Shown: piece by piece, positions 1-21,205 of the stretch | How the letters are laid out: every line of letters begins with the position of its first letter | Position numbering within the stretch: position 1 is the first letter of the stretch | Source of the DNA: Stramenopiles sp. TOSAG23-2 | Lineage: Eukaryota | DNA: 45,160 bases | NCBI GenBank assembly: GCA_900128395.1 | Contig: LT649289.1 | Span: forward strand, 1 to 45,160 | Direction: 5' to 3' | Translations under genes and position numbers: made by a program | The notes under the pieces: model-generated | Told to the model about the DNA's origin: nothing | What the model saw: the letters and a program-made list of their open reading frames with translations, nothing else | Database searches by the model: none

Positions 1-1291
1 TAAATATTTTTTCTTGACACACACAGAGAGAGACAGAGAGAGAGATAAAAAAGACAGCTAGCCAGAAAAAAAGACTTCCGTTTTTGTATTCTTACTATCT
101 ATGCTGCACCTTTCCATCCTTTGTGTCTATTGATGTATATATAAATGCAATATATCATTATTCATCATAGTTCATAGAACAAATCTTCTTCTTCGATATT
201 TCGAGAAGAATCTCCCGATCTCATCTGATATCTTTTATGAATAATTTCAATCGTAGCTAGTGCTGTGGCTATGTTATAATAGGAATCCAAAAAATATTAT
301 AGCGGAATAAACTAAGAATATCCGCTTTTTGGTAATATCCAATACCTCTCTATCAAATATACATAAATTAGTATACTAAATTAGTACTTAAATTAAACGT
401 CGTTTTGAAATCCACTAATAATCCTTCTCATTTACAAGGTTTATTGAAAGTATGTCCGAACATTATTATATCATCATACATAAAATCACAAAATATCAAA
501 TAATTCATCTATAAAAATATTAATCAAAATATCCGCAAAACAACAACAACAACAATTTAAATTGTTACAATTCTTTATTCTATTTATACATAATTTTACA
601 CAAGGAAAAATAATTTCTGAAATAATCGTTCATACTTTTTTTAAAATATATTAAGTATATATATTTGTATACTAAGATTCCGATTTTTTTATCGAGATGA
701 TTTTTTTCAAACAAATATTCTAAATGTGCAAATACATAAATATATCCGGATAGTATAGACTATAGAATAAATTTTTTGATCAGGCAAAAAAAAAATTTGT
801 ACTCCTGCAAAATATTTTGGCAAAAAAAATTATTATACCCGAATTAGGGCTTGACGATATCACTATGTTTAACAATAGAACGTTTTGTGAAAAATGTTTT
901 TTTGGTTTCACATTTTTGACACAAAAAAAAGTCCCAGTTTATCTTGGCTAGACGACTAGAAAATAATTATTATTATTGTGCATGCATGGCACACACCCAT
1001 ACAGATGTATACACACACACACACAATATATCTATCGTTGTTTTCTTTTCTGTTATTGGTATAATATATCTTTGCAATAAATATTCTTTCAAAATAGAAG
1101 AGGAAGTGCTGTGCATATTATTAATTGAATATATATATATATATATATATAATATTATTATTTTTTTTTGCATTTTAATAATTTCAAAAAAACAATATAC
1201 TATATAATAATTTCAAATAAAAGATTTTCGTCTTACCCCCCTCTATTTTCAATTTGAATATTCACGCAAGTTGTCATAAAAAAATATAACA

Positions 1292-2641
1292 ATGGCATCA
1301 ATTGCAGATGATGAATCGAAAACATCTAATAGTGGTAATGGTGGTAATATAAGTCCATCGTTAAATGAATCGTCAAATGTTCCAACTTATAATTTTGCTG
1401 TTCAAGGTCAAGGTGGCAAAATTCCACAAGTTGGTTTTGGTACGTCTGGTTTGAAAGGGGAAATGGGAGAAGAAGCTATAGTTGAAGCAATACGTTGGGG
1501 ATATCGTTTAATAGATACAGCTTTGCTTTATGGAAATCATGCCGAAGTTGGAAATGCTGTAGCGCGCGCAATGGCAGAATTAGATCTAGATCGCGATGAT
1601 ATCTTTATTACAAGTAAAGTTGGCTTTTTTCCACCAGATTCAAAAGGTAAGGATGATATCTGGATGTACAAAGGTGGCTTAAATTTAAAAGGTGATGAAG
1701 AAGAATCAATTGCTATATCATTATCTGAATTGAAATTGAAGTACGTTGATTTATTTTTAATACACAACCCGACTGCAAGTATTCAAGAATACAACAGTGC
1801 ATGTTTGCCACATTTTTTTGAATTATTTAATTATAAAGATAACGATGGTGCAGTGAAACCAAAGATATTACCAAATGGATATGATGCACGTGAAATGATG
1901 CAAGAAACAGCTAGGAAATCACTTACAGCAAAGGTGGATATGGATGTATCATATGAAAGACGAAAAGCATCTTGGAAAGCATTGGAAAAAGCAAAACGAC
2001 AAGGTAAATGTCGATACATTGGCGTTAGTAATTATACGAAAGAATTATTACTAGAGATGAAGGAATATGCTGAAATAATGCCAGCAGTCAATCAATTGGA
2101 ATACCATCCAAGATTTGCATCAAAAGAATTGCTTGAAACAGCAAAATCAATGGGTGTTATATTAATTGGTTATGGTATGGGAATGGCAACACAAATTTCT
2201 ATGTCAAGTGATGCGAATGTCACAAGTCCTGGTGCAAAAAGAGTCAATCGTACGTTAGAAGAAATTAGTAAACGAATGAATAAAAGCAAACATCAAATTC
2301 TTGCTCGTTGGATGAAACAACAAAATATAATACCGTTGCCACGTAGTTCGAATGGTAAACATATTCGGGAAAATATTGATATATATGATTTCGAATTAAG
2401 TGATGATGATATGATATTAATAGATAAGTGCAACGAAAATTATCCATATTATTGGGACAATCGAACATCATCAATAACAGTTAGACATGCTGTAACTAAA
2501 GCATTTGTCAATACGGGAAAAGCAATAGCAAGACATAGTCAATCATGGGCACAGAATGTTGGGAATTCACTGGGAGGGATGTCAGGTATGCCATCTATGT
2601 CTGGTTTGGGTATTGGCAGTACTGGCATTGGAAGTGTTTAG
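1292..2641 (+). CDS. Aldo/keto reductase family protein (449 aa)
   Basis: AKR motifs IPQVGFGT, GYRLIDTALLY (catalytic Asp/Tyr), IFITSKV (Lys), YVDLFLIH (His), IGVSNY, PAVNQLEYHP, IPLPRSS...HIRENIDIYDFELS. Confidence 0.93.
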   Translation: MASIADDESKTSNSGNGGNISPSLNESSNVPTYNFAVQGQGGKIPQVGFGTSGLKGEMGEEAIVEAIRWGYRLIDTALLYGNHAEVGNAVARAMAELDLDRDDIFITSKVGFFPPDSKGKDDIWMYKGGLNLKGDEEESIAISLSELKLKYVDLFLIHNPTASIQEYNSACLPHFFELFNYKDNDGAVKPKILPNGYDAREMMQETARKSLTAKVDMDVSYERRKASWKALEKAKRQGKCRYIGVSNYTKELLLEMKEYAEIMPAVNQLEYHPRFASKELLETAKSMGVILIGYGMGMATQISMSSDANVTSPGAKRVNRTLEEISKRMNKSKHQILARWMKQQNIIPLPRSSNGKHIRENIDIYDFELSDDDMILIDKCNENYPYYWDNRTSSITVRHAVTKAFVNTGKAIARHSQSWAQNVGNSLGGMSGMPSMSGLGIGSTGIGSV

Positions 2642-3059
2642 TGTCATCAAGTAATCTTGATAATGACTTTTATAACACATGAAGACGATGCAGGGAATGT
2701 GTTTTATAATTTTTTATTAATATACATGTGCATATGCCATAATATCTGGGAATGAGATTGGATATTATATATAATAAAAAAAGATGTACACATAATAATA
2801 ATATTTTAAAAGAATATCTTCTCTGTATGTAATTAATATTTTATATTTTGATTTTGATACAGTGGTTAAATCTTGTTTTAGATGACGACAAATAGCAAAT
2901 ACTATCCCTCTTCTCCTCTGTCAAATAAATGACTCACTTCTAATATCATACGCTCTGCTAATACTCACCCATATATATATATAATAAATAGACAATAGGA
3001 AGAGAGAAGAGATATATATGAAAGAACATAAATTGAAATCTTAATACGCTCGTTATCAC

Positions 3060-4879
3060 ATGATGGAACATTATAAACAATACTTCGACATGGAGTCACC
3101 GGAAGATAGAATATCTGCATGTTTCATATTAGCTGTCTTTGTATTTGTTGGTTCATCAGTAATAGATGGTTCTATTAATATATTGCAGTTGCATCACAGG
3201 CTCTATAAAACACATCAATTAAATACAGTTGCAGCATTATTGAGCTTTCTATTTACACTCGTCGCAGGAATTGTGAAAAACACGCATCCAACTATACTGG
3301 CATACATTGCTGACGAGGAAGCAAAACCATATTTATTCATATGGAAAGATTCACTTTCAATAAAATCACATCAAACTATATTTTTACACATTGTGTTTTA
3401 TTTATTAGGACACGTTGTCGCTGTTTTGTATAAGTTGATCATTGTAGCATTTAAAGCATATAAATATAGGCAGTTAACAAAAGTTGGGTTAAATAAATGT
3501 ACAGGGCAACCAAAGCGTATCTTAATTATTCATGCATCTGTTGGTAGTGGGCACAAGCGTGCCGCGCAAGCAATAGAAGAAGCTATTAAAAAACGCATTA
3601 TTAATTCAGGTGGTGAAATAGCAAGTGACAATGATAATGATAATAATAATGACGAGAAGAATGGTAAAACTGTTGTGAAAGTATTAGATATTATTGATAC
3701 ACAAGAATGGTTTTTACGAACAGTATATAAAAAAGGTTTTATGACATTAGTAGGTGAAGATTGGGGACAAGCATTTATCGGATTGATGTTTGATAGATCA
3801 AATCAGCAAGCTCCTGGATTAGATGTTGGCGAACATGGTTTCTTTCAAACTGTTTTAGAAGAAGCATTTTCATTATCGTTTGTCGAGTATTTATTTAATT
3901 TCAAACCAGATATTATAATCAATACGCATTTTCTTGGATTAAAGATTATATCACATTTAAGACAGAAATTACCTGCATTCAATGTACCGCAAGTAACAGC
4001 AGTAACCGATTTTGACGTTCATGCATATTGGGCATGTCAACCATGTGAGCATTTTTTCGTTGCAAGGGATGAATGTAGACATGCCTTACAAGAAATGGGA
4101 ATTTCAAATGATTTAATACAAATTACCGGTATGCCAATTGTTCAAGCATTTTCAAATGTACGTTCAAAACAAAAGTGTTTAAAAGATTTACAATTAGATG
4201 GTAAATTACCAATTATATTATTAATGGCTGGTGGCGATGATATCTTTGAAACGTATCATGCATTATTAGAAATGACAACTAGTGTACAGATTGCACTTGT
4301 ATGTGGAAGACATGAAGATTTGAGAGATCAATTATTAGCAATCAATGTACCGATTAGGCATAAAGTAAAAATTGAAGGTTTTACTCGTGTGATGCGTAAG
4401 TAAATTCTAATATATTCCCCTATATATATATATTAAACCTCTAAAAAGGATACCTTCTCTCTCTCTAACACCATTTTTCTTGTTCATATACGCTATGCTT
4501 CACAGATGAATATTTATCATGCGCTGATTTAATTATCACAAAACCAGGTGGATTAACAACTGCAGAATCATTGGCAATGGGTACTGCTATTGTTGTGTAT
4601 CATAGTTTACCCGGGCAAGAATTACGGAATGCAGATATGATATTAGAGGAAGGTGCAGGAATCAAAATAAATGATTCAAGGATGTTAGGATATAAAATTG
4701 AAAAAATTTTAAAAGACAAAAAACGTCTTGCTTCATTAAAAAAAAATGCAAAACGAATTGGTTCTACCGATAGTGCTGATAAAATTGCAAAATATATATT
4801 CAATGCTGATTATTATGATACATACATGTCATCAAATGCTCGTCGTAGTAATTATAAAAAAAGGGGGAAAAATGAATGA
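3060..4879 (+). CDS. GT28 glycosyltransferase, MGDG synthase / UgtP-like, with N-terminal membrane segments; exons 3060-4395 and 4506-4879 (569 aa)
   Basis: ILIIHASVGSGHKRAAQA, PDIIINTHF, AVTDFDVHAYW, ITGMPI. Splicing GTAAGT(4396)..CTAAC..CACAG(4505) gives GFTRVM-H-EYLSCADLIITKPGGLTTAESLAMG...PGQELRNA, the canonical GT28 C-terminal motif. Confidence 0.9.
4396..4505 (+). other. Spliceosomal intron (110 nt), member of a related-intron family
   Basis: GTAAGT donor, CTAAC at 4465-4469, CAG acceptor; removal joins two ORFs across a conserved motif. Confidence 0.9.
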
Positions 4880-5037
4880 GTGTGAAAACCAAAAGAGGGA
4901 GGAGAGAGAGAGAGGAAATAGTGAATGTGTGATGTGTGAATGTGTGAATGTGGTGGTTTTTTTTGTGTGCATGTCTTTACATAGAGTTGTTTTAATTATG
5001 AGAGGGATTTTTTGTATCATACAAAAATTTAAAATAT

Positions 5038-6405
5038 TTAAAATATTCTTTTTAACTCAGACGCATGTGCTGCTAGCCTATTGCACCCCTCCAAAAATGC
5101 AGCCTGGGAGTTATTTGGGTCAACTGCCGAGCGATCCAATATAGACAGGGAGTGAGCACACGTGCCTTTCTTTTTCATATACCGGACGACCTCTAAAATA
5201 CTTTTCTGAGTCTCAACCTGCAAAGACTGCCGAATGAATTTTTCTAGCTCCAAGAGCAACCTTTCGCATTGCTCGCTACTTAGGGCGTGCTTGGTACAAA
5301 ACTCGGCAGTCACGGTTTCAAGATTACTTGACGGCCCCAGAGGTATCACTACCTTGTCTGTCTTATCTTCCAGTCCAACTTTAAAGTAGAAGTCTTGGTT
5401 CAATAGCACCGGAACGACAACTTCCAGTAGACTGCGTTCCGACAAACTCATCTTTCCGCACTCGTGGGACTTGGAGAGCATTCTCTCCTGCAGCTGGCGG
5501 CACGCATTTTCATCCAACCCCTTGTAAGCCAGGCAGGCCTGTACTAATATTTGCTTATTGGCTTCGGGTTGCGGGCATTTCAAGCGAAGCAATTTTGTGT
5601 CGCACATACGTGGATCTACAAAAATACCCCGTGCTAATACGAGGCTGGCGTGCACGTATATGTCGTCCATCTCCACGCAAAATGTTCGAACGTACCCATG
5701 GGCTATCAGCAATAGTCTAATTTGTTCTCGCTTTTCGCCCTGCTGGTTGTGCTCTACGGCTACCGCACCAAATGTGTACTTGGAAAAATTAAAATTCTGC
5801 AATATCATGAATTCGGTCCCTTCCGTATCGAGCGATAAGAAATGGACAAAAGGAGGCGCATGATGTTCATCCATCACTTCTTCCAACGTTCGCGTTACAC
5901 GACGCGTCACTTCTCCCCGGGTCGAGTACAGCAAATGCTCGCGGATGCCGCTGTACAGATTTCTTGAGCTTGGATTTGCTCCCAATGTCATTTCACCGTT
6001 ATTATCATTTTTTAGGCGATTTGCAGCGACTTGGATATCCACGCTGCTGTTCTGGACATCTTCAAAAAAATCGACAACGATGCCAGATATATTCGAAAGC
6101 GGCTCATTCCTCATGGCACACCTCCGTCCGCTTGTTACCAAACGCGCATATTGACGAGAGGGCTCGACGCAGAGACCGGTCCACCCGAACGCTTTTTCGA
6201 GTGTCAAGGTGTTGCTCATATGGATTCCGTCCGCGGCTCCAATCTCAACAAAATACCCTGTTCCGAGGGGAACAGAGTCGCCATACACTTGTTGCATGAC
6301 ATATTTCTCTTGATCAACCTGGGAATGCCACACAATTTCACTGTCCCACACGCTTATGGACTGGGCCGACGCTACGAAAAGCAGGAAGAGGAGACCAACA
6401 GTCAT
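5038..6405 (-). CDS. FkbM-family (Methyltransf_21) SAM-dependent methyltransferase with signal peptide and Cys-containing C-terminal domain
   Basis: YFVEIGAADGIHMSNTLTLEKAFGWTGLCVEP, FLSLDTEGTEFMIL, AVAVEHN; hydrophobic N-terminus MTVGLLFLLFVASA. Confidence 0.88.
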   Translation of the reverse strand: MTVGLLFLLFVASAQSISVWDSEIVWHSQVDQEKYVMQQVYGDSVPLGTGYFVEIGAADGIHMSNTLTLEKAFGWTGLCVEPSRQYARLVTSGRRCAMRNEPLSNISGIVVDFFEDVQNSSVDIQVAANRLKNDNNGEMTLGANPSSRNLYSGIREHLLYSTRGEVTRRVTRTLEEVMDEHHAPPFVHFLSLDTEGTEFMILQNFNFSKYTFGAVAVEHNQQGEKREQIRLLLIAHGYVRTFCVEMDDIYVHASLVLARGIFVDPRMCDTKLLRLKCPQPEANKQILVQACLAYKGLDENACRQLQERMLSKSHECGKMSLSERSLLEVVVPVLLNQDFYFKVGLEDKTDKVVIPLGPSSNLETVTAEFCTKHALSSEQCERLLLELEKFIRQSLQVETQKSILEVVRYMKKKGTCAHSLSILDRSAVDPNNSQAAFLEGCNRLAAHASELKRIF

Positions 6406-7484
6406 CCCGCCACCACCACAGCCTTCTAAAGCAATCGAGGGGATAACAAGTTTGAAAAGAACACGACAGTTATTTCTCTTAACACATTCTTATTGACATC
6501 GTTGTAATTCGAACGAGAAAGACATGTGTTCATTTAGTCTGTATGTATTTCATCTAACCATTCCTCGTCGAGATATAATAATGTTTCTTCGCTTTCTTTT
6601 TCCTTTTTTTATTTTGCAAGTATAAATAATAATAATAGAAGAATAATATTATTATTATATTATATTTATAGATATTATGAATGATTAGATCTATGTTGTT
6701 GCCTATTATTTATTATTGAAATTATAATAGGTATGGCTATTGATGAAATTATTATTTTATTTTTCAAATATAAAAAAAATAATAGTCTGCGGCGCGTGTA
6801 CTTGGTAAATTAGATTACCGATTACCTATATATTTATAGCTTGTGTATATGATATATAGTCAATAGTCAAGGATATATGAAAAATATTATTTAGATTTAT
6901 AGGGTCGAGATCCTGATTATGATATCCTCGCCTCTTGCCTCTTTATCTTGCCTCTTGCAAGTCGCAAGTGTAGCAAGTTGCTTCTTGATATTATAATACT
7001 GGTATTACAATATAGCTAATGCTACGAGTGCCAAAATGCTGGACAACGAAAAAGAGCTTTACGATCACAAAATCATTTCATGTTGTTACCACGTATATCG
7101 AAATATTAATGATCTCTAAGAAGGAGAAATTGTATATATATTAATATATATATATATATATATATGGTAGTACTATCCCTTGTGTATTAATTAATATATA
7201 CGTATAAAATATATATGGAATGTAGTATATATATATGTATATATTGTACTTCTCTTTTATCTACATACAATGCATATAAATCTATAAATTTTGTTACTAA
7301 TGTGTCTTAGTTATTCATATTTTTGTTCAAAATAATGAATGCACAAATCGATCACAATTATTATTATTATTTTTTAGTCTTTTTGTTTTTAGTTTTGGCA
7401 TTTTTCTATTTTAAGGTAAGGGCTGTAGCAGGGAAGAACGAAGGGAATAATCGAGTAGCATTTTTCCTATAGAATTTTAGAATC

Positions 7485-7757
7485 AAATTTATGACTATCG
7501 AAAAAATTTAGTAGGGGAAGATATTGAAAATGCCGTTGGACCAATGGATTTGTTAAAATATTGCAAAACAGATCAAGAAAGAAAAGAAATGGAGGCTGTA
7601 ATTAACATAGGAAAAGAGTTAAATGGTATGACGAGTGATGGGATACCATATATTTATCGTTGTTGGGCCGATACAGAGTTTCAAAATGCCCATGAAGTTC
7701 TTGGTAAAAAACCACAAGAATATTTTCATAAAATTATAAAAAAACCAATACTCGACG
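7485..7757 (+). pseudogene. 273-bp near-identical copy of an internal part of the CRAL-TRIO gene (12689-12961)
   Basis: Matches 12689-12961 at offset 5204 with one mismatch seen (G7535 vs A12739); lacks the gene start and 3' part. Confidence 0.9.
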
Positions 7758-7916
7758 CGACTACGATATATATTATTAGAATTTTTTATATGATATAATA
7801 TATATTTTTTATAATAAAAAAATATTAATAATAATTTTAATAAAATTAATGTGAGCATCAGAAATGTTATACACACGACGGCAGCGCATTTAGCTATTGG
7901 TGTCACCACACACACA

Positions 7917-8055
7917 CATGTTATGTGAAATCAGACATATTCTCTCTTCTTCCACGCACACATGTTATGTGAAATCAGACACATATTCTCTCTTCTTCCA
8001 CGCACCATGCGTTATGTGAAATCAGAGACATATTCTCTCTTCTTCCACGCACCAT
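7917..8055. repeat. Minisatellite, 3 imperfect copies of about 44-47 bp
   Basis: Unit CATGTTATGTGAAATCAGACATATTCTCTCTTCTTCCACGCAC starting at 7917, 7961 and ~8006, with small indels. Confidence 0.9.
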
Positions 8056-8238
8056 ATGTTTCAAAAAAATATACATTTTTTTACTTGTTATTTTGTTTTA
8101 TTAATATTTGTGTAATATTGTGGTGCATAAATGATGTATCACAATCGTTTCAATCATCTCCTATTTTTTTCCTTATTTCTTTGTTTTAGACTTTACGTTT
8201 TCTATTACTCTCGGTTTCCAAGTTTCCAATACCATTTT

Positions 8239-11200
8239 TCAATCTTCTTTGTGTTCATCATCATCAACATTAACATTAACTTTCTCTTCTTCTTCTTCCG
8301 TATTCACCACACCATTCTCCTGCCCGTTCATTGTTGTTCCAACTTCTTCTATTACTGTTGCCACACCCAAACGTTCCATCATCATTTCATTCATCATTGA
8401 TTCATGTTCATAATTACGCTTACCACCTTTTGGTCGATACGACATAACTTCATGACCATTTAACATCTTTCGTATTGTTTTAGCAGTCTTATTATTTGCT
8501 TTTATTTCAGTATCACTAGCTTCAAATACCCAATCATCTACTTTTGACATGATGAACAATAATTCTTTTTTTTCATCCAAAACCATTTGTAAACTACGAA
8601 GACAACTATCATCTTCTAATACACCTCCTGTCAAAATTATTACAACATATTCAGCTTCTGAAACAACAGATATAATTGTTTGTTGGCGAGACAGTAATGA
8701 TTTTTCTATATCTTGACCAATATGTTTTCCAGATTTTATATTGTCAACTGAATTTTCAGCATAAATAACCATAAATGAATGTGTTTTAAAACTAAGATAA
8801 ATTGGTCTAGGTACTTGAATCTCAGCACGACGTAACAATTCATACACCATAGCTTCATATTCAAATCCACGACGTCGATGTGGTATCATTTGATCATTAT
8901 CATGCATGTCAATTATCACTTTACGTATATGATTTGCAGTGTCAGGACTGCCTTGGAGTCTTGAAAATTTAGTAAATCCCATATCTTTGGTCTCAAGGTC
9001 CGTATATGTCTTTTCCAACGTTGAAACAATTTTCCCTTTTGCATCAAATCCCATTGAACTTTTCCATCCACGCTCTTCCGCATTTTTATGATTTGACTTG
9101 CGCGAACACATATTTGCTTGCCATCGATTTAAATTCCATTGCCAAAACATTGGATTTTCTTCTACAATAACAAAAATTGGTTTGTTATAGAATAATGCAG
9201 TAGCAAATTCTAATAAACAATACCATCTTGACATATAACTATTTGTTAACATGACAACAAATATATCAGAATCAATCACACCTTGTATCATACTATTCGC
9301 ATCAATTTTTTTCTGTGACATATCACGCCATACATGTACCCCGGATTGTTTCAATGTATTAAATAATGTACCAACCTCCCCAGACGATTCAGCTTGCATA
9401 TGGGATATAAACATATGGTATTTCATAGGTTGTTGACCCGGTTCGTTTTTATTGCTTGGATTCAAAAAACGGTGATCCAATATATTTTGAAGAGATGGTC
9501 TTTCATTTGGTTTACCTTTCAGACACCAACGAATTAAATTTTTTGCATCGTTTATTGTTTGTATGTTTGCCGTATCAGTTTTACTAAATATCACATCAAA
9601 ATATGTATCGGGAATAGTATGCCATGCACACAATATGGCTTTATCTGGTTTATTTGCTAAATTATCATCACTAATATCTTGTGGAAATAAATTTTGACCA
9701 GTACATAATTCGTATAATAATACACCTAATGACCAAACATCAAATGATGATTTTATTATGTCCAACTTGCCACCAATAGTAGTGAATATACAACGAGCTA
9801 ATTCAGGTGGACAATATCCGGTACTATATTTTAAGCTGTTATCCCGTTGGCTATCTTTTTCACATGCAGCATCCATATCACATAATAGCAATTGTTCTTC
9901 TTTGATGCCATCGCGTCTAACATATAAAAAATTACGTGGTTTTAAATCACAATGTACATATTTTAAATCATGATGCAATTCTTTTACTTTTGTCACAGCT
10001 TGATGAAATATATTGACAATTTTATATGGATTGTAACCAGCAATACGTTGTGTAGAAAGCTCGTGAAATAACGATACAATACCACGTTCCATGACTAATA
10101 CATATTGGTACTCAGAGTGAAAGGTTGGTTCTACGATACAAACTCGTTGTTTTCCATGATGATTTTCTAATGGAAGTTTTGTTTCAGCGTTTGGTAAATG
10201 CCATCCAAGTACTTTGACAACACATTTATCAATTGTACTATCAGAATTAATATCACTAATAAATCGTGCAGTAATCTCACGTTCAAATTCATCATAATTC
10301 TTCATTAATTTTAATGCTACTTGGTTATTGTTATCTTCAATATCTGTAGCAAAAAATACAATCGATGTGGAGGATTGATGTACAGGTTTTTCTTCGCTGG
10401 TAATTTTATAACGTTGAAATTTCGTACCGAGCGATTTGGCCCATTTAACGACTAATGGCCATTCGCAATAACGTATTATAGCATCTCGATCTCGATCAGC
10501 AGCATCATGGTATATTGGTTTAATTTTGTTATAAATGTGTTTCGTTAATATAAGATGTTTGTCTTCGTTGGATTTATTAAATTGCATTTCGCATATGTAA
10601 TGTAAATTTGTTTTACCATTTATTTCGAATTCTTCATTGTTTTGATTGATACGTTTAATCCTTGATGCTAATGTTTTATATATGTTCATATTTAAAACAT
10701 CGATGGCGTATCGTAATAAGGGCTTTTCCGGATTATTGGACATGTGATCATTGGACATATATAAAATTATACTACGATCATCTTCATTCATGCATTTCCG
10801 AAATAATTCCATATTTTCAGATTTGATTGCATTGTGTAAATTAGATAATTCTTCTACACATTTTCCACCTTTTGAACGTATAAGATCAATGATCTTTTGT
10901 ATAATTAGACTATGATTACCATAACATGCCCTGTCCAGGGGAGTGTATCCCACCGAATCCTTCTTATTAATGCTATTAAGAGACATATTAGTTAATAACA
11001 AATTAATCACCGCAGTACTCTTTTTGTTCCATTGTGCTGCCCAATGTAATGCAGTTAATCCATGTCTGCTATTTCCAATATTAAGATCAGCTTCACCTTG
11101 TTCAATCAAATATTTAACTATTTGGAAATGTTCTTTCTCTGCAGCTGCCATTAAAGGTGTACATTCGAAACTATCACTACGTTTACCTTCTTGATTCACG

Positions 11201-11556
11201 TATTCTTTCAATGTCATATTATTATTATTACCATTACTACCATTCACATCATTATTACGCCCTGTAATCAATAATTTCACATCCTCAAAACGTCCTTTTT
11301 CACATGCACATACTAATGGCGTACCTTTTGGAAATTCTGTTTTATACTTTTCTTTTAATTTCGTTACCACATTACTATCAATTACTGTTTTTGTTATTGA
11401 ATTATTACTCGCATTATTATTGTTGTTGTTATTATTATTGCTATCATTACTCCCAGTGCTGTTGTTATCACCATTGTTTACAGCATCAACTCCTTGTCGA
11501 TTTGGAGCACCGATTCCATTAGATTCATCTTTTGCATTTGACGCCGTGCACCCCAT
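8239..11556 (-). CDS. Ankyrin repeat + Ser/Thr-type protein kinase + TIR domain protein with predicted N-terminal acylation (~1105 aa)
   Basis: Likely start MGCTAS at 11556; ankyrin repeats (TPLVCAC, TPLMAAA, TALHWAA, TPLDRAC); kinase VALK, HCDLKPRN, CDMD, STGYCPPE, DVWSLG; TIR YHMFISH...VWRD...SDIFVVMLTNSYMSRWYCLLE. Confidence 0.9.
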   Translation of the reverse strand: MGCTASNAKDESNGIGAPNRQGVDAVNNGDNNSTGSNDSNNNNNNNNNASNNSITKTVIDSNVVTKLKEKYKTEFPKGTPLVCACEKGRFEDVKLLITGRNNDVNGSNGNNNNMTLKEYVNQEGKRSDSFECTPLMAAAEKEHFQIVKYLIEQGEADLNIGNSRHGLTALHWAAQWNKKSTAVINLLLTNMSLNSINKKDSVGYTPLDRACYGNHSLIIQKIIDLIRSKGGKCVEELSNLHNAIKSENMELFRKCMNEDDRSIILYMSNDHMSNNPEKPLLRYAIDVLNMNIYKTLASRIKRINQNNEEFEINGKTNLHYICEMQFNKSNEDKHLILTKHIYNKIKPIYHDAADRDRDAIIRYCEWPLVVKWAKSLGTKFQRYKITSEEKPVHQSSTSIVFFATDIEDNNNQVALKLMKNYDEFEREITARFISDINSDSTIDKCVVKVLGWHLPNAETKLPLENHHGKQRVCIVEPTFHSEYQYVLVMERGIVSLFHELSTQRIAGYNPYKIVNIFHQAVTKVKELHHDLKYVHCDLKPRNFLYVRRDGIKEEQLLLCDMDAACEKDSQRDNSLKYSTGYCPPELARCIFTTIGGKLDIIKSSFDVWSLGVLLYELCTGQNLFPQDISDDNLANKPDKAILCAWHTIPDTYFDVIFSKTDTANIQTINDAKNLIRWCLKGKPNERPSLQNILDHRFLNPSNKNEPGQQPMKYHMFISHMQAESSGEVGTLFNTLKQSGVHVWRDMSQKKIDANSMIQGVIDSDIFVVMLTNSYMSRWYCLLEFATALFYNKPIFVIVEENPMFWQWNLNRWQANMCSRKSNHKNAEERGWKSSMGFDAKGKIVSTLEKTYTDLETKDMGFTKFSRLQGSPDTANHIRKVIIDMHDNDQMIPHRRRGFEYEAMVYELLRRAEIQVPRPIYLSFKTHSFMVIYAENSVDNIKSGKHIGQDIEKSLLSRQQTIISVVSEAEYVVIILTGGVLEDDSCLRSLQMVLDEKKELLFIMSKVDDWVFEASDTEIKANNKTAKTIRKMLNGHEVMSYRPKGGKRNYEHESMMNEMMMERLGVATVIEEVGTTMNGQENGVVNTEEEEEKVNVNVDDDEHKED

Positions 11557-12426
11557 AATATTTGGTATAAAATATATGTTAAAAATTATTATTAAACTGA
11601 TTTGTAAATTTATCAAATAATATTATAATATAATCTTTAAAAAAAAAATCCAAATGTAACGTAATATAATTTCAATAGTGTTATACGATCGTATTTATTA
11701 TTATATATATCTTCCTGATAATTCGTAAAAATATATGTCCAAACAAATATGTATACCACTATAGTATTATATTATACCGGATGATAAATTACGAATAAAG
11801 ATGATATAAAATAAAATAAAACCAACCAAATGTTCGTAAACACAACCAAATGTACGTAATTTTTAATATTATTATATTAAAATTAACAAAAAAATGTTAT
11901 ATATTTTAATATCTTCGTAATGTTCTGTATATGGATAAACGTTTCAACTATAGATATATTATCTTGTTCTACAGTTATATCTCTTAAACAATAATATATA
12001 TTTATATATATTCAACACAGTGGTGATATTACAATTATCTACAACCTCCCCCCCTTGTGTAGATTGTATATCATTATTCATTCATTATATATGATGTGGA
12101 TGGGTAAAGAAGGAGGTGGAAAGTCGTCATTGAAATATTGAAATCCTCTCTTCCACACAAGTCCCTAGATCTACCTATCAAATACTGTATCTATAGTATA
12201 CTAAATCTGTACTTATCGGAAAAATAAGGATATAATAACATTTTCTACTTCGTTCTACTCTTGCCACAGAGTAACTTCGTTCTATCTACGTCTTACCTGT
12301 AAATAAAAGATATCTATTAATATATATATTTGTTGCATTTTATTAGAAAACATACAATAACAATTCTTCAACAAAATAAAATTATAAAAGAGAATACCCT
12401 TCGTCATTCGCTTATCACTACCGACA

Positions 12427-13979
12427 ATGGCATCCCTTGCATTTGATAATGACAAAATTACCGATGGTAATTCCGCTTTTATGGAATTACCAGACGAAGA
12501 AGAAAAAAAAATGCTAGTTCAACTACGTGATGCATTAAAACAAGATATGGAAAGATCGAAATCATGCAAAGAATTTCCAGAGATTGTGTCTGATTATAAA
12601 TTGATTAGATATATACGCGGATATGAAGGGGTCGACGGGGCTGTAGCCGCTTACCGTAAAATGCTACGGACACGTGAAACATATCCTGAAATTTATGACT
12701 ATCGAAAAAATTTAGTAGGGGAAGATATTGAAAATGCCATTGGACCAATGGATTTGTTAAAATATTGCAAAACAGATCAAGAAAGAAAAGAAATGGAGGC
12801 TGTAATTAACATAGGAAAAGAGTTAAATGGTATGACGAGTGATGGGATACCATATATTTATCGTTGTTGGGCCGATACAGAGTTTCAAAATGCCCATGAA
12901 GTTCTTGGTAAAAAACCACAAGAATATTTTCATAAAATTATAAAAAAACCAATACTCGACGGCATCTTGATGGAGTTAAGATTGGATGCTTTAAGTAAAA
13001 AAAATAACAAAATAGCAAGGATGATATGGATAGGAGATTCTACTGGATATAGCTTTTCCAAATTTCGATCAAATATCAAAGATGGTCCTTGGAAAATCTT
13101 TGTTGATCATTACTTTCCTAAAGATGAAAATAATAAAGGTCCATTTGAAACATATGCACCAGAATCAGTTGGAATTATCTTATTGGTTAATACTGTAAGT
13201 AATAAATTGCTTTTCTCGTATTGCTTTTCTCTCGTCAAGATATATGCGATGAATCTCGATCAAATTTTAAATTTCGTTTTCAAAGACATCAAAATTCTAA
13301 CATTAATTTTAATCTTTATATTTATAATAGCCGTGGTATTTGGTAAAAATTTACAATTGGATTATTTTAAATTTCGTTTTCAAAGACATCAAAATTCTAA
13401 CATTAATTTTAATCTTTATATTTATAATAGCCGTGGTATTTGGTAAAAATTTACAATTGGATTATTAAAACATTTTTTCCTGCTCGTGTTCAACAAAAAA
13501 TTGTCGTGTTAGGGAAAGATTATAAAAAGCGACTATTAGCATTCATGGACCCATCATCTGTTGATCGTATTATGAAACACCGTGGCGTTGATGATGAGGA
13601 TGATTTGCCATTAAGCAAACCTGATTTGAAAATGAAAAAAGGAAAGGTAAAAGAAGTACCAGTCTCTGGGAAACCCGGGGATACAATTGAATGGACATTC
13701 AATGTAACCAAAAATACTGTTGATTTTTCTTTAATCTTGTACGTTCCTGGTAAGGATGGTGAAGTGGAAGAACGAATCATCTTAGAACCACAACGATGTA
13801 ATATTGACGATGAAGAAATACAAGGTGATTATGAAATTGAAGATTTAAGTGAAGAAGCTGATAATGGTGGCACCAAAGATACTGAGTATTTGCTAGGCTT
13901 GCGGTTTTCAAATAAACATTCACTGTTAAGAACTACTAAAGTTGCATACGATATAAAAATCACAAAGGAGGAAGATTGA
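12427..13979 (+). CDS. Sec14-like CRAL-TRIO + GOLD domain lipid-binding protein; exons 12427-13194 and 13431-13979 (438 aa)
   Basis: DYKLIRYIRG (CRAL-TRIO N-terminal domain); YAPE...ILLVNT|PWYLVKIYNWIIKTFF...QKIVVLG after splicing GTAAGT(13195)..TAG(13430); GOLD-like IEWTFNV...VDFSL...LRFSNKHSLLRTTKVAY. Confidence 0.88.
13264..13466. repeat. Exact 100-bp tandem duplication spanning an intron 3' end and exon start
   Basis: 13264-13366 repeated at 13364-13466; duplicates the branch point and the acceptor (AG at 13330 and 13430). Confidence 0.92.
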
Positions 13980-13989
13980 AAATATTCCT

Positions 13990-14213
13990 GTTGTGTAACA
14001 GAAGTTTTGAATTAAGTGTCCCAATGAGCCAGTGAACTAAAATTTAAAAAGAAAAAAACTCTATACGAAAACTGTGTATATATTAATCTATTAATCTCAC
14101 AGTTGTGTAACAGAAGTTTTGAATTAAGTGTCCCAATGAGCCAGTGAACTAAAATTTAAAAAGAAAAAAACTCTATACGAAAACTGTGTATATATTAATC
14201 TATTAATCTCACA
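13990..14213. repeat. Exact 112-bp tandem duplication between convergent gene ends
   Basis: 13990-14101 equals 14102-14213. Confidence 0.92.
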
Positions 14214-14378
14214 ATTAAATGTGCGCCAATAACTTAAACATATACGTATATGATATATACACGAAGTTAAGATTATATTTTACTTTTTATTCGTATTAAA
14301 ACGCACAACACAAAAACAAAACACACTTTTTTACACCCGGCGTACTTATTCGTAAACGCACACCACATATATATTATT

Positions 14379-17357
14379 TTACCGCAACAACTTATCTTTT
14401 TCAGTAAATTTAAACAACGTATAATTTTGCATAGCCAAACCAACTTGGTGCAAGATGTTGTCTATTGTCTTACGTTTATTACACTCTTTTGTAAGTAAAA
14501 AATAATATTTTCCGTCTTTTTTAAATGTTATGTTCCCATCTTCCAATAGAACGGATGAAAGTGGTGCTTTAACATGCTTAAATATATTTGAAATATTAAA
14601 TGATTCACAATTTGGATTTATCAAGTACGAGTTTCCACATCTACTTTTTTCATATGGTATTTCCATTTTATTTAATAAATCAGACATGTATAAATATGTA
14701 TGATCTTCATTTTCTAATGATAAAAGTTCTTCTACTTCGTTTAATTGATTGGAAAGCATGTCATATTTATCATCATCAATATCTACTATCACGGTAGAAT
14801 GATTCCCATCTAATTTTTGCATCATGAAATCCAATTCATCACTAAAATCATCACCATCATTCTGTGCTATATTATCAATATTATCATTATCCAACTCAAC
14901 CTCTTCTTCCGCTTCAACTATATCCATTTTCTCTACATTCAACAAAGGAAAATTGTTTTTGTCAAAATATTCAATTTCATTTATGATAATTTTCTTACTG
15001 TTTTTCTTTATTGTACTTGTAGCAAATGAATCTAACAATAATCGTTGTTGTAACATGAAGATAAATTTATCATTTTTAAATTTATTTGGTGCATTATAAG
15101 TTGTATAATTTAAATCTCGTTGATAATGTTTTAGCCTTAATTTACTTTGATTGATATCTACATGGCTGCGGTACTTTTCTATTGAGTTTCCCATATTTAT
15201 CATTATTTCATCAATCTGCTCTTGTACAATCAATTTCAAATCATCATCATCTACTGTTTCAACTGCTTTCAATACATTTAGCATGGAAAAATGCAAATAA
15301 AATGATTTTCCAATATACTTAAATGTTGCTCCATGAAAAACATCATTATATATATTACATGCAATTTCCCATTCCCCCGCATTGCCACAAGCAGTAATTA
15401 TACTATTTACAATATAAAGAGGTAGTAAAGTTCTAGAAAGATTCGCTTCGTGAACAATGGTATAATAAATGTCTAATGCTTTTTCCCAGTCATTATATTT
15501 ACCACATATGTCAATCAATGCTACGCAACCATGTGGATCATGTAGACGATTATATGCGATTTGAACAAAATTCCCAAATTTATAAGAGGGCTGTGGTTTG
15601 TTCTTATATTCATCACTATTTACATATTCCTTCTGTAAGCCAAATGCCTTACTACTTTCAAACCTACCAGTTTTTGTAACAATACCCAATTTTACGAACT
15701 TTTCATATCCTTCATTAAATTTTCCTACCTTACCATACACATCAACAAGTCCAGCTACAATGTTCAGATCTATTCTATTTGTCCCTTGTAAACCTGTCAA
15801 TAAATTTGCTGCCATGATTTCCATTGCTTCATAGTGTTTATTATCTGCAAGTGCATGAATAACTTTTAACGATTCACGATGATTTTCATGGACATTTACA
15901 TCACTAGATATTTCATTCTGATGATAACTATCCTTCCATGAAATTAAATTCTTATTTGTTTTTAAAACTGTATGCAACATTGTGTTTGCAACGTCAAATT
16001 TATCATTGCGGATTAAATATGCAAAAACATTATGCAATGTAATGTTGTCCATTTTTATTTTGTATTTACAGTGTAATTTGGCCCAATTTAAAAAATGTTT
16101 CTCATTATTCACTAAAAATATATCATTCAGAACAAGCCACTCCGTCATTTGTATAAACAATTCTTCATCTGGTTTTACTTTTAAATATGTTTCCATATGT
16201 TCAAATAAATAAAATGCATGATCAATCAATCCAATTCGTACTAATACTTCTATCATTGCAGTAAATGATTTTATACCAATATCATATGGCAAATCATTGT
16301 TATAAAGTTTTTCAAGAAATACATTATATAAATTGGTCACATGCGTTGCATTAAATGTCTTAAATTTTTTAACTTCGTTAATAAGCTCTGCAAACATTTC
16401 ATCATTTGCTTGAATATTACTTTCATTATATGCAATATCCTCTTTGAAATCAATAAATAATTGATGAATGGATGAACGCGATTCTAGAATGTGATTTAAT
16501 GAAAGATTAAAACTATGAACACTTTGATCTTTTGGATTTTTCAACATTAATATACGATCATTGGCACCTTCCTCTTCTTCTTCTCTCAGCTTCTTTTGTT
16601 TTTTTGCCATTTGATTTTGTGAAAAACTACGAAATTTTTGGTCGGGTTCTTTGTCTTCTTCATCATCATCTATTTCTTCTTCGACCCGCATGTCTTCTTC
16701 TCTTATTTTTTTTTCTTTTTTTATCTTTTGATTTTGTAATTTTATTTGTTGTCTAAGAGTCGCATTATTACGAAAATTATATATGCTAAAATATTTCAAG
16801 TTTTTAAAATCACGAATACCTTTCGATAATATTTCATTTTTTTCTTCTTGTTCCCTTTGCATTTGCATCTCCTCTATCGATAAGGAGGAGCCAAAATCAG
16901 GACTGGTATTAATCATATTATCAAAATCATCCGAATCAATACTATCAAAAGCAAATTCTGTGTCAATCTGATCAAAGTTAGAACTTTCTTCTTCATCAAT
17001 ATTGGTATCATAATTATCAAATGGAAAAAACATGTCGTTTTCATTATCAAGGTTTAATTCTTCCTCTAAATCAAGTAATTCTCGTTCTAAACTTTGTATT
17101 TCTTTTTCGATCTTAATCAATTCTTTGTCTTTAACTTCTTCCTCCAATGCTGAAATTTTCTTTAAATGTTTGTCGTTATCCTCGCTATTTTCTTCTTTTA
17201 CATTATCATCATCATCTTCACCATCGCTAGTAGATGAACCCATCACTACATTTGTTGAAAATAAACGACGTGGGTGGCCCGTCACTACATTTGTTGAAAA
17301 TAAACGACGTGGGTGGTGGTAACGATATGATAGAAATTGTTTGACGATAGACTGCAT
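14379..17357 (-). CDS. Pentatricopeptide-repeat (PPR) protein, probably mitochondrial (~992 aa)
   Basis: Presequence-like MQSIVKQFLSYRYHHPRRLFS, then an acidic region; PPR-like motifs SFTAMIEVLVRIGLIDHAFYLFEHM...KPDE, CVALIDICGKYNDWEKALDIY, IVNSIITACGNAGEWEIACNIY. Confidence 0.8.
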   Translation of the reverse strand: MQSIVKQFLSYRYHHPRRLFSTNVVTGHPRRLFSTNVVMGSSTSDGEDDDDNVKEENSEDNDKHLKKISALEEEVKDKELIKIEKEIQSLERELLDLEEELNLDNENDMFFPFDNYDTNIDEEESSNFDQIDTEFAFDSIDSDDFDNMINTSPDFGSSLSIEEMQMQREQEEKNEILSKGIRDFKNLKYFSIYNFRNNATLRQQIKLQNQKIKKEKKIREEDMRVEEEIDDDEEDKEPDQKFRSFSQNQMAKKQKKLREEEEEGANDRILMLKNPKDQSVHSFNLSLNHILESRSSIHQLFIDFKEDIAYNESNIQANDEMFAELINEVKKFKTFNATHVTNLYNVFLEKLYNNDLPYDIGIKSFTAMIEVLVRIGLIDHAFYLFEHMETYLKVKPDEELFIQMTEWLVLNDIFLVNNEKHFLNWAKLHCKYKIKMDNITLHNVFAYLIRNDKFDVANTMLHTVLKTNKNLISWKDSYHQNEISSDVNVHENHRESLKVIHALADNKHYEAMEIMAANLLTGLQGTNRIDLNIVAGLVDVYGKVGKFNEGYEKFVKLGIVTKTGRFESSKAFGLQKEYVNSDEYKNKPQPSYKFGNFVQIAYNRLHDPHGCVALIDICGKYNDWEKALDIYYTIVHEANLSRTLLPLYIVNSIITACGNAGEWEIACNIYNDVFHGATFKYIGKSFYLHFSMLNVLKAVETVDDDDLKLIVQEQIDEIMINMGNSIEKYRSHVDINQSKLRLKHYQRDLNYTTYNAPNKFKNDKFIFMLQQRLLLDSFATSTIKKNSKKIIINEIEYFDKNNFPLLNVEKMDIVEAEEEVELDNDNIDNIAQNDGDDFSDELDFMMQKLDGNHSTVIVDIDDDKYDMLSNQLNEVEELLSLENEDHTYLYMSDLLNKMEIPYEKSRCGNSYLINPNCESFNISNIFKHVKAPLSSVLLEDGNITFKKDGKYYFLLTKECNKRKTIDNILHQVGLAMQNYTLFKFTEKDKLLR

Positions 17358-17559
17358 CTTTTGCTTTAATATTTTGACATGTATTTGTATCATCGCTAGT
17401 AGATGAACCCATCACTACATTTGTTGAAAATAAACGACGTGGGTGGCCCGTCACTACATTTGTTGAAAATAAACGACGTGGGTGGTGGTAACGATATGAT
17501 AAAAATCGTTTGACGATAGACTTCATCTTTTGCTTTAATATTTTGACATGTATTTGTAT
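17222..17559. repeat. 169-bp tandem duplication of the PPR gene 5' end, each copy with an internal 36-bp repeat
   Basis: 17222-17390 vs 17391-17559, about 3 mismatches (MQSIVKQF vs MKSIVKRF); HPRRLFSTNVV is encoded twice in each copy. Confidence 0.92.
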
Positions 17560-20993: not shown

Positions 20994-21205
20994 GAGAAGA
21001 AGGGAAGAAAAAGAAAGAAAAGGGGAGTGTGTGTGTGTGTGTGTGTGTAAATATTTAATTCGTACCCCTGTGAGTGTCATCTTCGCAAGAGTNNNNNNNN
21101 NNNNNNGAGAAGAAGGGAAGAAAAAGAAAGAAAAGGGGAGTGTGTGTGTGTGTGTGTGTGTAAATATTTAATTCGTACCCCTGTGAGTGTCATCTTCGCA
21201 AGAGT
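20994..21205. other. Scaffold gap (14 N, 21093-21106) flanked by an identical 99-bp overlap; assembly artefact
   Basis: 20994-21092 equals 21107-21205 and contains a (GT)n microsatellite. Confidence 0.92.

Follow-up and report, generated by a model that had tools for sequence, protein, structure and literature searches.

A protist ankyrin–kinase–TIR–TIR protein as a candidate single-chain sensor–kinase–NADase switch

We analysed a 45,160-nucleotide stretch of DNA from Stramenopiles sp. TOSAG23-2 (contig LT649289.1, assembly GCA_900128395.1; hereafter "the window"), which carries, at positions 8239–11556 of the reverse strand, an intronless gene for a protein of 1105 residues that contains ankyrin repeats, a protein kinase, a TIR domain with the residues of an NAD+-cleaving enzyme (TIR1) and a second TIR domain that has lost them (TIR2). 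On balance, we consider it probable that this protein is a single-chain sensor–kinase–NADase switch for defence or regulated cell death. The argument rests on the conservation of the kinase and of the unequal TIR pair, on structural models, and on the domains that relatives carry in front of and behind the same kinase.

Results

Domain architecture

Translation of the open reading frame (ORF) runs without a stop from its first residues, MGCTAS, and contigs of two DNA runs agree with the gene in part. Pfam matches comprise ankyrin repeats at residues 111–193 (E 5.7e-20), Pkinase at 470–698 (E 2.5e-27) and TIR_2 at 716–799 (41.1 bits, against a cut-off of 28), which are the three families that an earlier, sequence-only reading of this DNA had named for a profile search. 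Translation, Pfam, profile comparison and fold comparison bear out that reading's description of a single intact ORF with ankyrin repeats, a kinase, a TIR domain and a second TIR domain, and support its anatomy of sensor, kinase, catalytic-type TIR and inactive-type TIR. No NB-ARC or NACHT domain is matched by Pfam in the 1105-residue protein, and the gaps between domains are too small for one; nor does Pfam match the ARM and tandem SAM domains of the SARM1 family, in whose place stand the ankyrin repeats and the kinase. The sole hydropathy peak above 1.6 (1.75, at residue 961) lies at a residue that the structural model puts in a strand of TIR2. As predicted from its sequence, the protein thus combines Pkinase and TIR without a transmembrane segment, the combination by which choanoflagellate "Kinase TIRs" are recognised. 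A structural model of the kinase–TIR1–TIR2 core (residues 300–1066) has a predicted local distance difference test score (pLDDT) of 91.9 and a predicted template-modelling score (pTM) of 0.88, the latter suggesting that the kinase and the TIR pair pack together as one compact unit.

The TIR pair

TIR1 (residues 711–912; window 8821–9426, reverse strand) has a SARM1-like fold. Compared with 48,161 representative chains, it matched best to the TIR domain of SARM1 (Z 16.2, rmsd 1.9, 130 residues aligned), which, together with the NADase TIR-1 (Z 15.2), is its nearest solved fold and has the same Glu and BB-loop Asp; scaffold TIRs score only 2–4 Z units below SARM1. The likeness to SARM1 is limited to 22% identity, and the ARM and SAM domains of SARM1 are replaced here by a kinase, a second TIR and an insertion of about 50 residues. 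The Glu of the WYCLLE motif, in which the sequence-only reading had seen a catalytic residue, is Glu783 (window 9208–9210, reverse strand); this putative catalytic residue is kept in all 88 relatives of an 88-sequence alignment and in 101 of 102 in a wider set, and the other motifs quoted in that reading are also all present. Asp745 of the BB loop, a position important in NADase TIRs (PMC13732033, PMC8635717), is kept in 76 of 76 aligned relatives. Searched by sequence against the PDB, the TIR pair had weak TIR matches only, the best of them (E 0.018) aligning E783 with the WCLEE motif of Roq1. The domain had earlier been placed at about 9150–9420; it is real but longer, extending to about 8821 because the insertion (residues 821–872) precedes strand betaE. 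To judge by motif, alignment and fold, TIR1 has the fold, the alphaC Glu and the BB-loop Asp of enzymatic (NADase) TIRs, and cleavage is predicted.

TIR2 (residues 924–1062; window 8371–8787, reverse strand) has Ser988 where TIR1 has its Glu. Profile–profile comparison (HHalign) matched TIR2 to TIR1 with probability 97.4 and E 4.9e-11, placing S988 opposite E783, and indicates that TIR2 arose from TIR1 by duplication. Modelled with AlphaFold2 from 88 sequences (pLDDT 96.1, pTM 0.92), residues 708–1066 form two five-stranded alpha/beta units, and the fold search with TIR2 returned the Cat1 TIR (9mud; Z 11.9, rmsd 2.8, 124 residues aligned). The sequence-only reading had staked its claim on the C-terminal regions modelling as TIR folds; both units do, and the second is, as it had proposed, a TIR-like unit with Ser in place of Glu. 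It had overlooked that TIR2 also lacks the BB-loop motif (WxDM): the span from betaA to betaC is 55–58 residues in TIR1 and has a median of 45 in TIR2 (range 39–100), about 10 shorter.

The S988 column is free in the 88-sequence alignment (Q 18, L 11, A 9, H 8, E 7), whereas other positions of TIR2 are near-invariant: W1009, F1011, E1036 (87/88), R1041 (87/87) and E1050 (86/86). The last three lie in betaE and alphaE, which compose the EE surface where the BB loop of a neighbouring TIR docks (PMC8635717). Conserved counterparts in TIR1 exist for R1041 and E1050, which may be structural, and none for E1036. In pairwise comparisons with paralogs by simple counting, on small numbers, the ratio of nonsynonymous to synonymous change (dN/dS) is 0.10–0.19 for the TIR1 core (5 pairs), 0.21–0.33 for the kinase (6 pairs), 0.34–0.62 for TIR2 (5 pairs) and 0.61–1.78 for the ankyrin block (4 pairs, a fifth having no synonymous change). 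These values indicate purifying selection on TIR2, and together with the near-invariant residues they lead us to reject a decaying remnant. The description of TIR2 as an inactive partner stands in so far as the Glu and the BB-loop motif are lost, but "inactive" may undersell a domain with near-invariant residues of its own. Without a catalytic Glu and with a reduced BB loop, TIR2 has, at the level of sequence, the marks of a partner of the kind found in the Arabidopsis RPS4/RRS1 pair. Covariation among 102 sequences (Neff 96, 303 columns) gave noise-like pairs that are uninformative on TIR pairing, and an alignment-free complex prediction for two copies of the TIR pair with NAD (score 0.01) speaks neither for nor against assembly.

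The kinase

The Ser/Thr-type kinase (residues 379–700; window 9457–10422, reverse strand) keeps K416, E427, HCD537, N542, D560-M-D and PPE. In the family alignment the catalytic residues are conserved in nearly every covering sequence (K416 43/43; E427 45/45; D537, N542 and D560 49/49; E585, the Glu of APE, 48/49), and K539, D606 and R686 are also invariant. The residue before D537 is Cys536 here and G in 26, C in 8, S in 7, N in 3, A in 3 and M in 1 of 49 sequences (the six commonest); without an Arg ahead of the catalytic Asp, the kinase classifies by sequence as non-RD. The Gly-rich loop and the Phe-Gly of DFG are absent, the loop consensus being HxSxT and the DFG position reading D[ML]D[AS]. 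The sequence-only reading had correctly noticed DMD in place of DFG, at residue 560. We considered whether DMD marks a decaying kinase and rejected this, as DMD is the family consensus. The searches gave distant kinases only: TTK (E 2.6e-23) came from the sequence search, and the fold search returned the kinase fold, with CLK, SRPK and CaMK at 15–20% identity.

Family members and exchange of domains

A search with the TIR pair found 673 clusters at 50% identity with E <= 0.001 and 242 at 1e-10, of which the best 150 were listed; with a profile of the kinase alone, 147 proteins out of 7935 candidates matched, 120 of them listed. Among the top 98 kinase-only matches, 68 have both TIRs directly after the kinase, 5 have TIR1 alone, 9 end fewer than 70 residues past the kinase and 16 continue with a different sequence. 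Named proteins that have the two TIRs belong to Picozoa, Incisomonas and Paulinella, spanning stramenopiles, Picozoa and Rhizaria. In 24 chosen proteins, Pfam finds behind the kinase a caspase (C14) in 4, one of them from this genome, ART in 4 (with one scoring at the cut-off and one beneath it), a TIR of another type in 2 and CHAT in 1. Precomputed N-terminal families on the relatives include ankyrin, leucine-rich repeat (LRR), HEAT/ARM, WD40, EF-hand and SPRY, and a TIR form and a caspase form, the latter labelled MAST-4, have one N-terminal ankyrin array in common (59% over 610 columns). In a quick tree of 75 kinases, with long branches and weakly supported deeper nodes, two clades lie within the family, one of caspase forms together with two unannotated rows (support 99) and one of ART forms (support 100). 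The shared ankyrin array, the varied N-termini and these clades indicate, on sequence grounds, that sensors are exchanged often and effectors rarely.

Some further members deserve mention. Protein P0002 has a TIR1–TIR2 pair on both sides of its kinase. Two LRR-kinase proteins of the caspase clade, P0219 and P0220, have tails of 377–457 residues without a clear Pfam match, possibly a new effector.

No prokaryotic or viral source of the kinase-TIR gene was found in GTDB, IMG/VR or a viral fold library, at limited sensitivity: the best 80 of 436 confirmed matches in the GTDB kinase-motif scan are all generic kinases (best E 3e-11, none reaching residue 783), each of the 16 loci of the IMG/VR scan is a generic kinase, and the viral fold library gave two weak single-TIR matches, from algal giant viruses. 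Matches in the ESM Atlas were unnamed or TIR_2 clusters of eukaryotes at 0.92–0.94, with few taxon records.

Copies and transcripts in the genome

The kinase–TIR1–TIR2 core occurs at 8 loci in the genome, one of them partial, with shuffled N-termini and with alternative effectors on related kinases, so that the paralog count and diversity proposed earlier as a check came out in favour of an expanded family. TIR_2 matches above the cut-off number 30, out of 30 candidates. The ankyrin cassette (four repeats, residues 63–232; window 10861–11370, reverse strand), in which Pfam confirms the repeats first noticed by eye in the sequence, has at least 175 matches in the genome, from 150 of 569 candidates scored, and is also joined to many unrelated proteins. 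A near-identical ankyrin block in the paralog C3036 was not taken as proof of gene conversion; a collapsed repeat could explain it.

A second genomic copy, contig C615, repeats window 1–8838 at 99.6–99.9% and then joins the DNA upstream of the gene. It therefore lacks window 8839–11676 and keeps nothing of the gene except TIR2, which differs from TIR2 of the window by 7 nonsynonymous changes and 1 synonymous change. Contigs of the two DNA runs, which come from different samples and may be the source of the assembly and are not independent support for it, match 8765–10827 without differences and 11309–11838 with at most 1 difference; their depth is 156 and 75 over the intact body and 244 and 154 over the deletion joint.

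Two marine or environmental RNA runs yield contigs that partly cover the kinase, TIR1 and TIR2 and differ by about 4–7%; in the same runs, two neighbouring genes match with 0–1 differences and intergenic DNA is nearly uncovered.

Elsewhere in the genome, G000:C1535 (L056:635-3949, reverse strand) encodes an LRR-kinase-caspase C14 protein whose kinase belongs to the same family. A second, single-TIR family, recognised by eye (L036, L022, L037, L038, L040, L041), has its TIR on the N-terminal side of a kinase, TPR-like repeats or a helicase-like region that contains LRRs.

Discussion

Proposed mechanism and alternatives

In the mechanism that we favour, an exchangeable N-terminal repeat domain, here ankyrin, would bind a trigger or hold the protein off. 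The non-RD kinase, with its conserved residues and its compact model with the TIR pair, would be the fixed central switch and would probably control the pair through phosphorylation or conformational change. Upon TIR assembly, TIR1, which has the fold, Glu and BB-loop Asp for the task, would cleave NAD+, leading to NAD+ depletion or to an ADP-ribose-type messenger. TIR2, having lost its motifs while conserving other residues, would be unable to catalyse or to donate a BB loop and would act as a built-in partner, like the RRS1 TIR beside RPS4, restraining TIR1 at rest and/or offering its conserved betaE/alphaE face to complete the TIR1 site; two chains could then form a resistosome-like unit of four TIRs.

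Caspase, CHAT and ART domains are typical death or defence effectors, and immune gene families typically show copy expansion, domain shuffling and deletion copies. The 8 core loci, the shuffled ankyrin cassette and the deletion copy fit this behaviour, and paralog expansion, shuffled N-termini and the caspase, ART and CHAT alternatives, all read from sequence, make an immune or cell-death role more likely.

Several points weigh against the proposed switch. A conserved Glu is no guarantee of catalysis, because Glu-bearing TIRs may be inactive: in E. coli, 4 of 29 Glu-bearing TIRs of unicellular eukaryotes made cyclic ADP-ribose (ADPR) products, and the Glu is also present in TLR2, IL-1R9 and IL-1R10, which are inactive (10.64898/2026.04.20.719644). 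The kinase may be weak, because it has neither a Gly-rich loop nor the Phe-Gly of DFG. A non-RD kinase is a mark of plant pattern receptors (PMC3411088), but this association with immunity comes from kinase families unrelated to this one. Finally, because the RNA contigs differ from the gene by about 4–7%, they point to expression of the family and not necessarily of this copy.

Of the alternatives, the strongest is a role outside immunity, in which a second messenger or phosphorylation would serve prey sensing, stress or development and the expansion would reflect general domain shuffling. It would account for the spread of the ankyrin cassette over many unrelated proteins, for the housekeeping genes next to the ORF and for family transcripts in two environmental RNA runs without known infection; the alternative C-terminal domains (caspase, CHAT, ART and other TIRs), the copy turnover and the deletion copies speak against it, and we regard it as unlikely.

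We give somewhat less credence to a composite two-TIR enzyme in which one pocket would be built in cis from TIR1 and TIR2 and would act on a nucleotide messenger such as cyclic ADPR (cADPR) rather than on NAD+, switching off or converting signals. There is a precedent in Drosophila Raw, which needs both of its TIR domains and hydrolyses cADPR, not NAD (PMC13455253). E1036, an invariant acid of TIR2 (87/88) without a conserved TIR1 counterpart, would suit such a pocket, as would the modelling of the pair as one rigid unit (pTM 0.92) and its double occurrence as a unit in P0002. Against this, TIR1 keeps the complete canonical NADase set, with SARM1 closest, and relatives with a caspase or ART suggest an output effector. 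Least probable is a scaffold in which both TIRs are adaptors in the style of TLR/MyD88 that cluster a weak or pseudo-kinase and the Glu is kept for structure: the atypical kinase loops, the existence of Glu-bearing inactive TIRs (10.64898/2026.04.20.719644) and the small Z margin of scaffold TIRs below SARM1 would allow it, but all kinase catalytic residues are invariant (K416 43/43; D537, N542, D560 49/49), and Glu783 and Asp745 are near-invariant in TIR1 while the same positions have decayed in TIR2, which keeps the fold.

Relation to known systems

Choanoflagellate Kinase TIRs, which are uncharacterised and have been suggested to be a streamlined pathway of immunity (Richter et al. 2018, PMC6040629), likewise join kinase and TIR in one cytosolic chain. 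They are described there as choanoflagellate-specific, whereas the present family occurs in stramenopiles, Picozoa and Rhizaria. In the table of a TIR atlas (PMC13142454), two choanoflagellate rows that combine kinase and TIR have, by eye, the same kinase motifs (HGDIKPRN, IDLDM), but only one TIR, of another sequence type, in contrast to the pair here.

In RPS4/RRS1, the TIR of RRS1 is without the Glu and its BB loop is shorter; it pairs with the catalytic RPS4 TIR and represses it (PMC13732033). According to that paper, heteromeric TIR proteins that have NADase activity had not been known earlier. RPS4 and RRS1 are two genes for receptors of the nucleotide-binding leucine-rich repeat type (NLRs) that have NB-ARC and LRR domains, whereas here a single chain carries the two TIRs after a kinase, without NB-ARC, and TIR2 arose by duplication of TIR1. 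Raw and OLRN-1 also have two TIR folds per chain, each with conserved residues, but Raw differs in having dimerisation domains, no kinase, and hydrolysis of cADPR; the likeness is one of description (PMC13455253). Dictyostelium TirE, again in a protist, combines a repeat domain with two diverged tandem TIRs, its repeats being RCC1 and no kinase being mentioned in the text available to us (PMC13142454).

Supplementary table 1 of the same atlas holds a Paulinella member of the family, P014918, with Pkinase and two TIR calls and the entry "Not in supported Clade" (PMC13142454); it has the same start and length as our family member P0139. The word "kinase" does not appear in the main text of the atlas as available to us, so that the family seems catalogued there but not described. 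Fifteen named family members and five motifs are absent from the table, which is downsampled and has cells of at most 400 characters. Kinase terms gave nothing on the family in the available parts of PMC3019232 and PMC7075850, and no paper describing it was found in literature lying mostly outside subscription papers and supplements. Kinase-TIR fusions and tandem TIRs are therefore known, and the pairing of kinase, TIR1 and TIR2 is not described in the literature found.

A broader proposal, which we make tentatively and think more doubtful than the switch itself, is that these proteins form an undescribed class of protist immune receptors spanning supergroups, in which a dedicated non-RD kinase replaces the NLR ATPase as the central switch that links interchangeable sensors to interchangeable death effectors (TIR pair, caspase, CHAT, ART), with a fused active/inactive TIR pair as the commonest effector. 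Immunity of free-living marine protists is almost unknown; haptophyte TIR genes respond to virus (PMC12489294), and enzyme activity of protist TIRs was first reported in a 2026 preprint (10.64898/2026.04.20.719644). If the proposal holds, the family would offer a concrete, testable pathway in abundant uncultured flagellates and a natural single-chain version of an active TIR paired with an inactive one, a question that in plants is still open; thanks to the fusion, a dimer could assemble a closed NADase with two sites and would need no filament growth. The TIR pair, at 360 residues, models well and is amenable to assay.

Other features of the gene and window

N-terminus, linker and tail

The MGCTAS start (window 11539–11556, reverse strand), for which the sequence-only reading had called the protein membrane-anchored, fits the pattern for N-myristoylation and palmitoylation. 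The motif is present here, but anchoring does not hold as a family trait: MGxxxS occurs in 1 of 155 kinase-bearing relatives, namely this protein, many of the 155 N-termini being incomplete, and the sister copy on contig C1767, with 94% identity over 740 nt of upstream and N-terminal DNA, lacks the 9 nt after the ATG that encode Gly-Cys-Thr and starts with MAS. The label is weak also on grounds of assembly. Contigs of the two DNA runs break at 10827 and 11309, on either side of the high-copy ankyrin block, and their depth is lower on the MGC side (37 and 23); because no listed contig bridges the repeat, the MGC start is joined to the kinase body by the assembly only.

Translation also shows an Asn-rich low-complexity spacer at about residues 28–53 (11398–11475). 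Between the ankyrin cassette and the kinase lies a helical linker (residues 233–378; 10423–10860) without a Pfam match, which by eye consists of an ankyrin-like repeat and a pre-kinase segment, the latter common to LRR- and caspase-bearing relatives. The protein ends in an acidic tail that is not conserved (residues 1063–1105; 8242–8370). All three features are on the reverse strand.

Neighbouring DNA

The window is AT-rich eukaryotic DNA (about 27–46% GC per kb), and the genes around the kinase-TIR ORF are, by Pfam, housekeeping genes, among them those for a tubulin, a prolidase and a PPR protein. For the prolidase, the best named relatives are stramenopiles, at 55–58% identity; the lineage call is weak, because other eukaryotes are nearly as close. 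A 273-nt near-exact repeat at 7485–7757 and 12689–12961, on opposite sides of the gene and present also in C615, was considered as a target-site duplication and rejected, the repeat being an internal piece of a neighbouring ORF. Downstream of the stop codon, at 7918–8057, lie three imperfect 47-nt tandem copies. An element of about 50 nt at about 12162–12222 has matches on about 25 other contigs, often paired 120–230 nt apart, and may represent one end of a small mobile element.

At 13264–13463 and 13990–14216, stretches of 100 and 112 nt are exactly duplicated in tandem; these duplications are probably assembly artefacts, because contigs of both DNA runs skip them. The first splits the ORF at 12388–13979, which has a Sec14/GOLD-like appearance but no Pfam match. 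Similar duplications lie at 17222–17559 and 20994–21205. Two ORFs at 3045–4879 encode, by Pfam, a glycosyltransferase of the monogalactosyldiacylglycerol (MGDG) synthase family, with RNA cover at 5070–5362, a gene that would be notable if the organism has no plastid.

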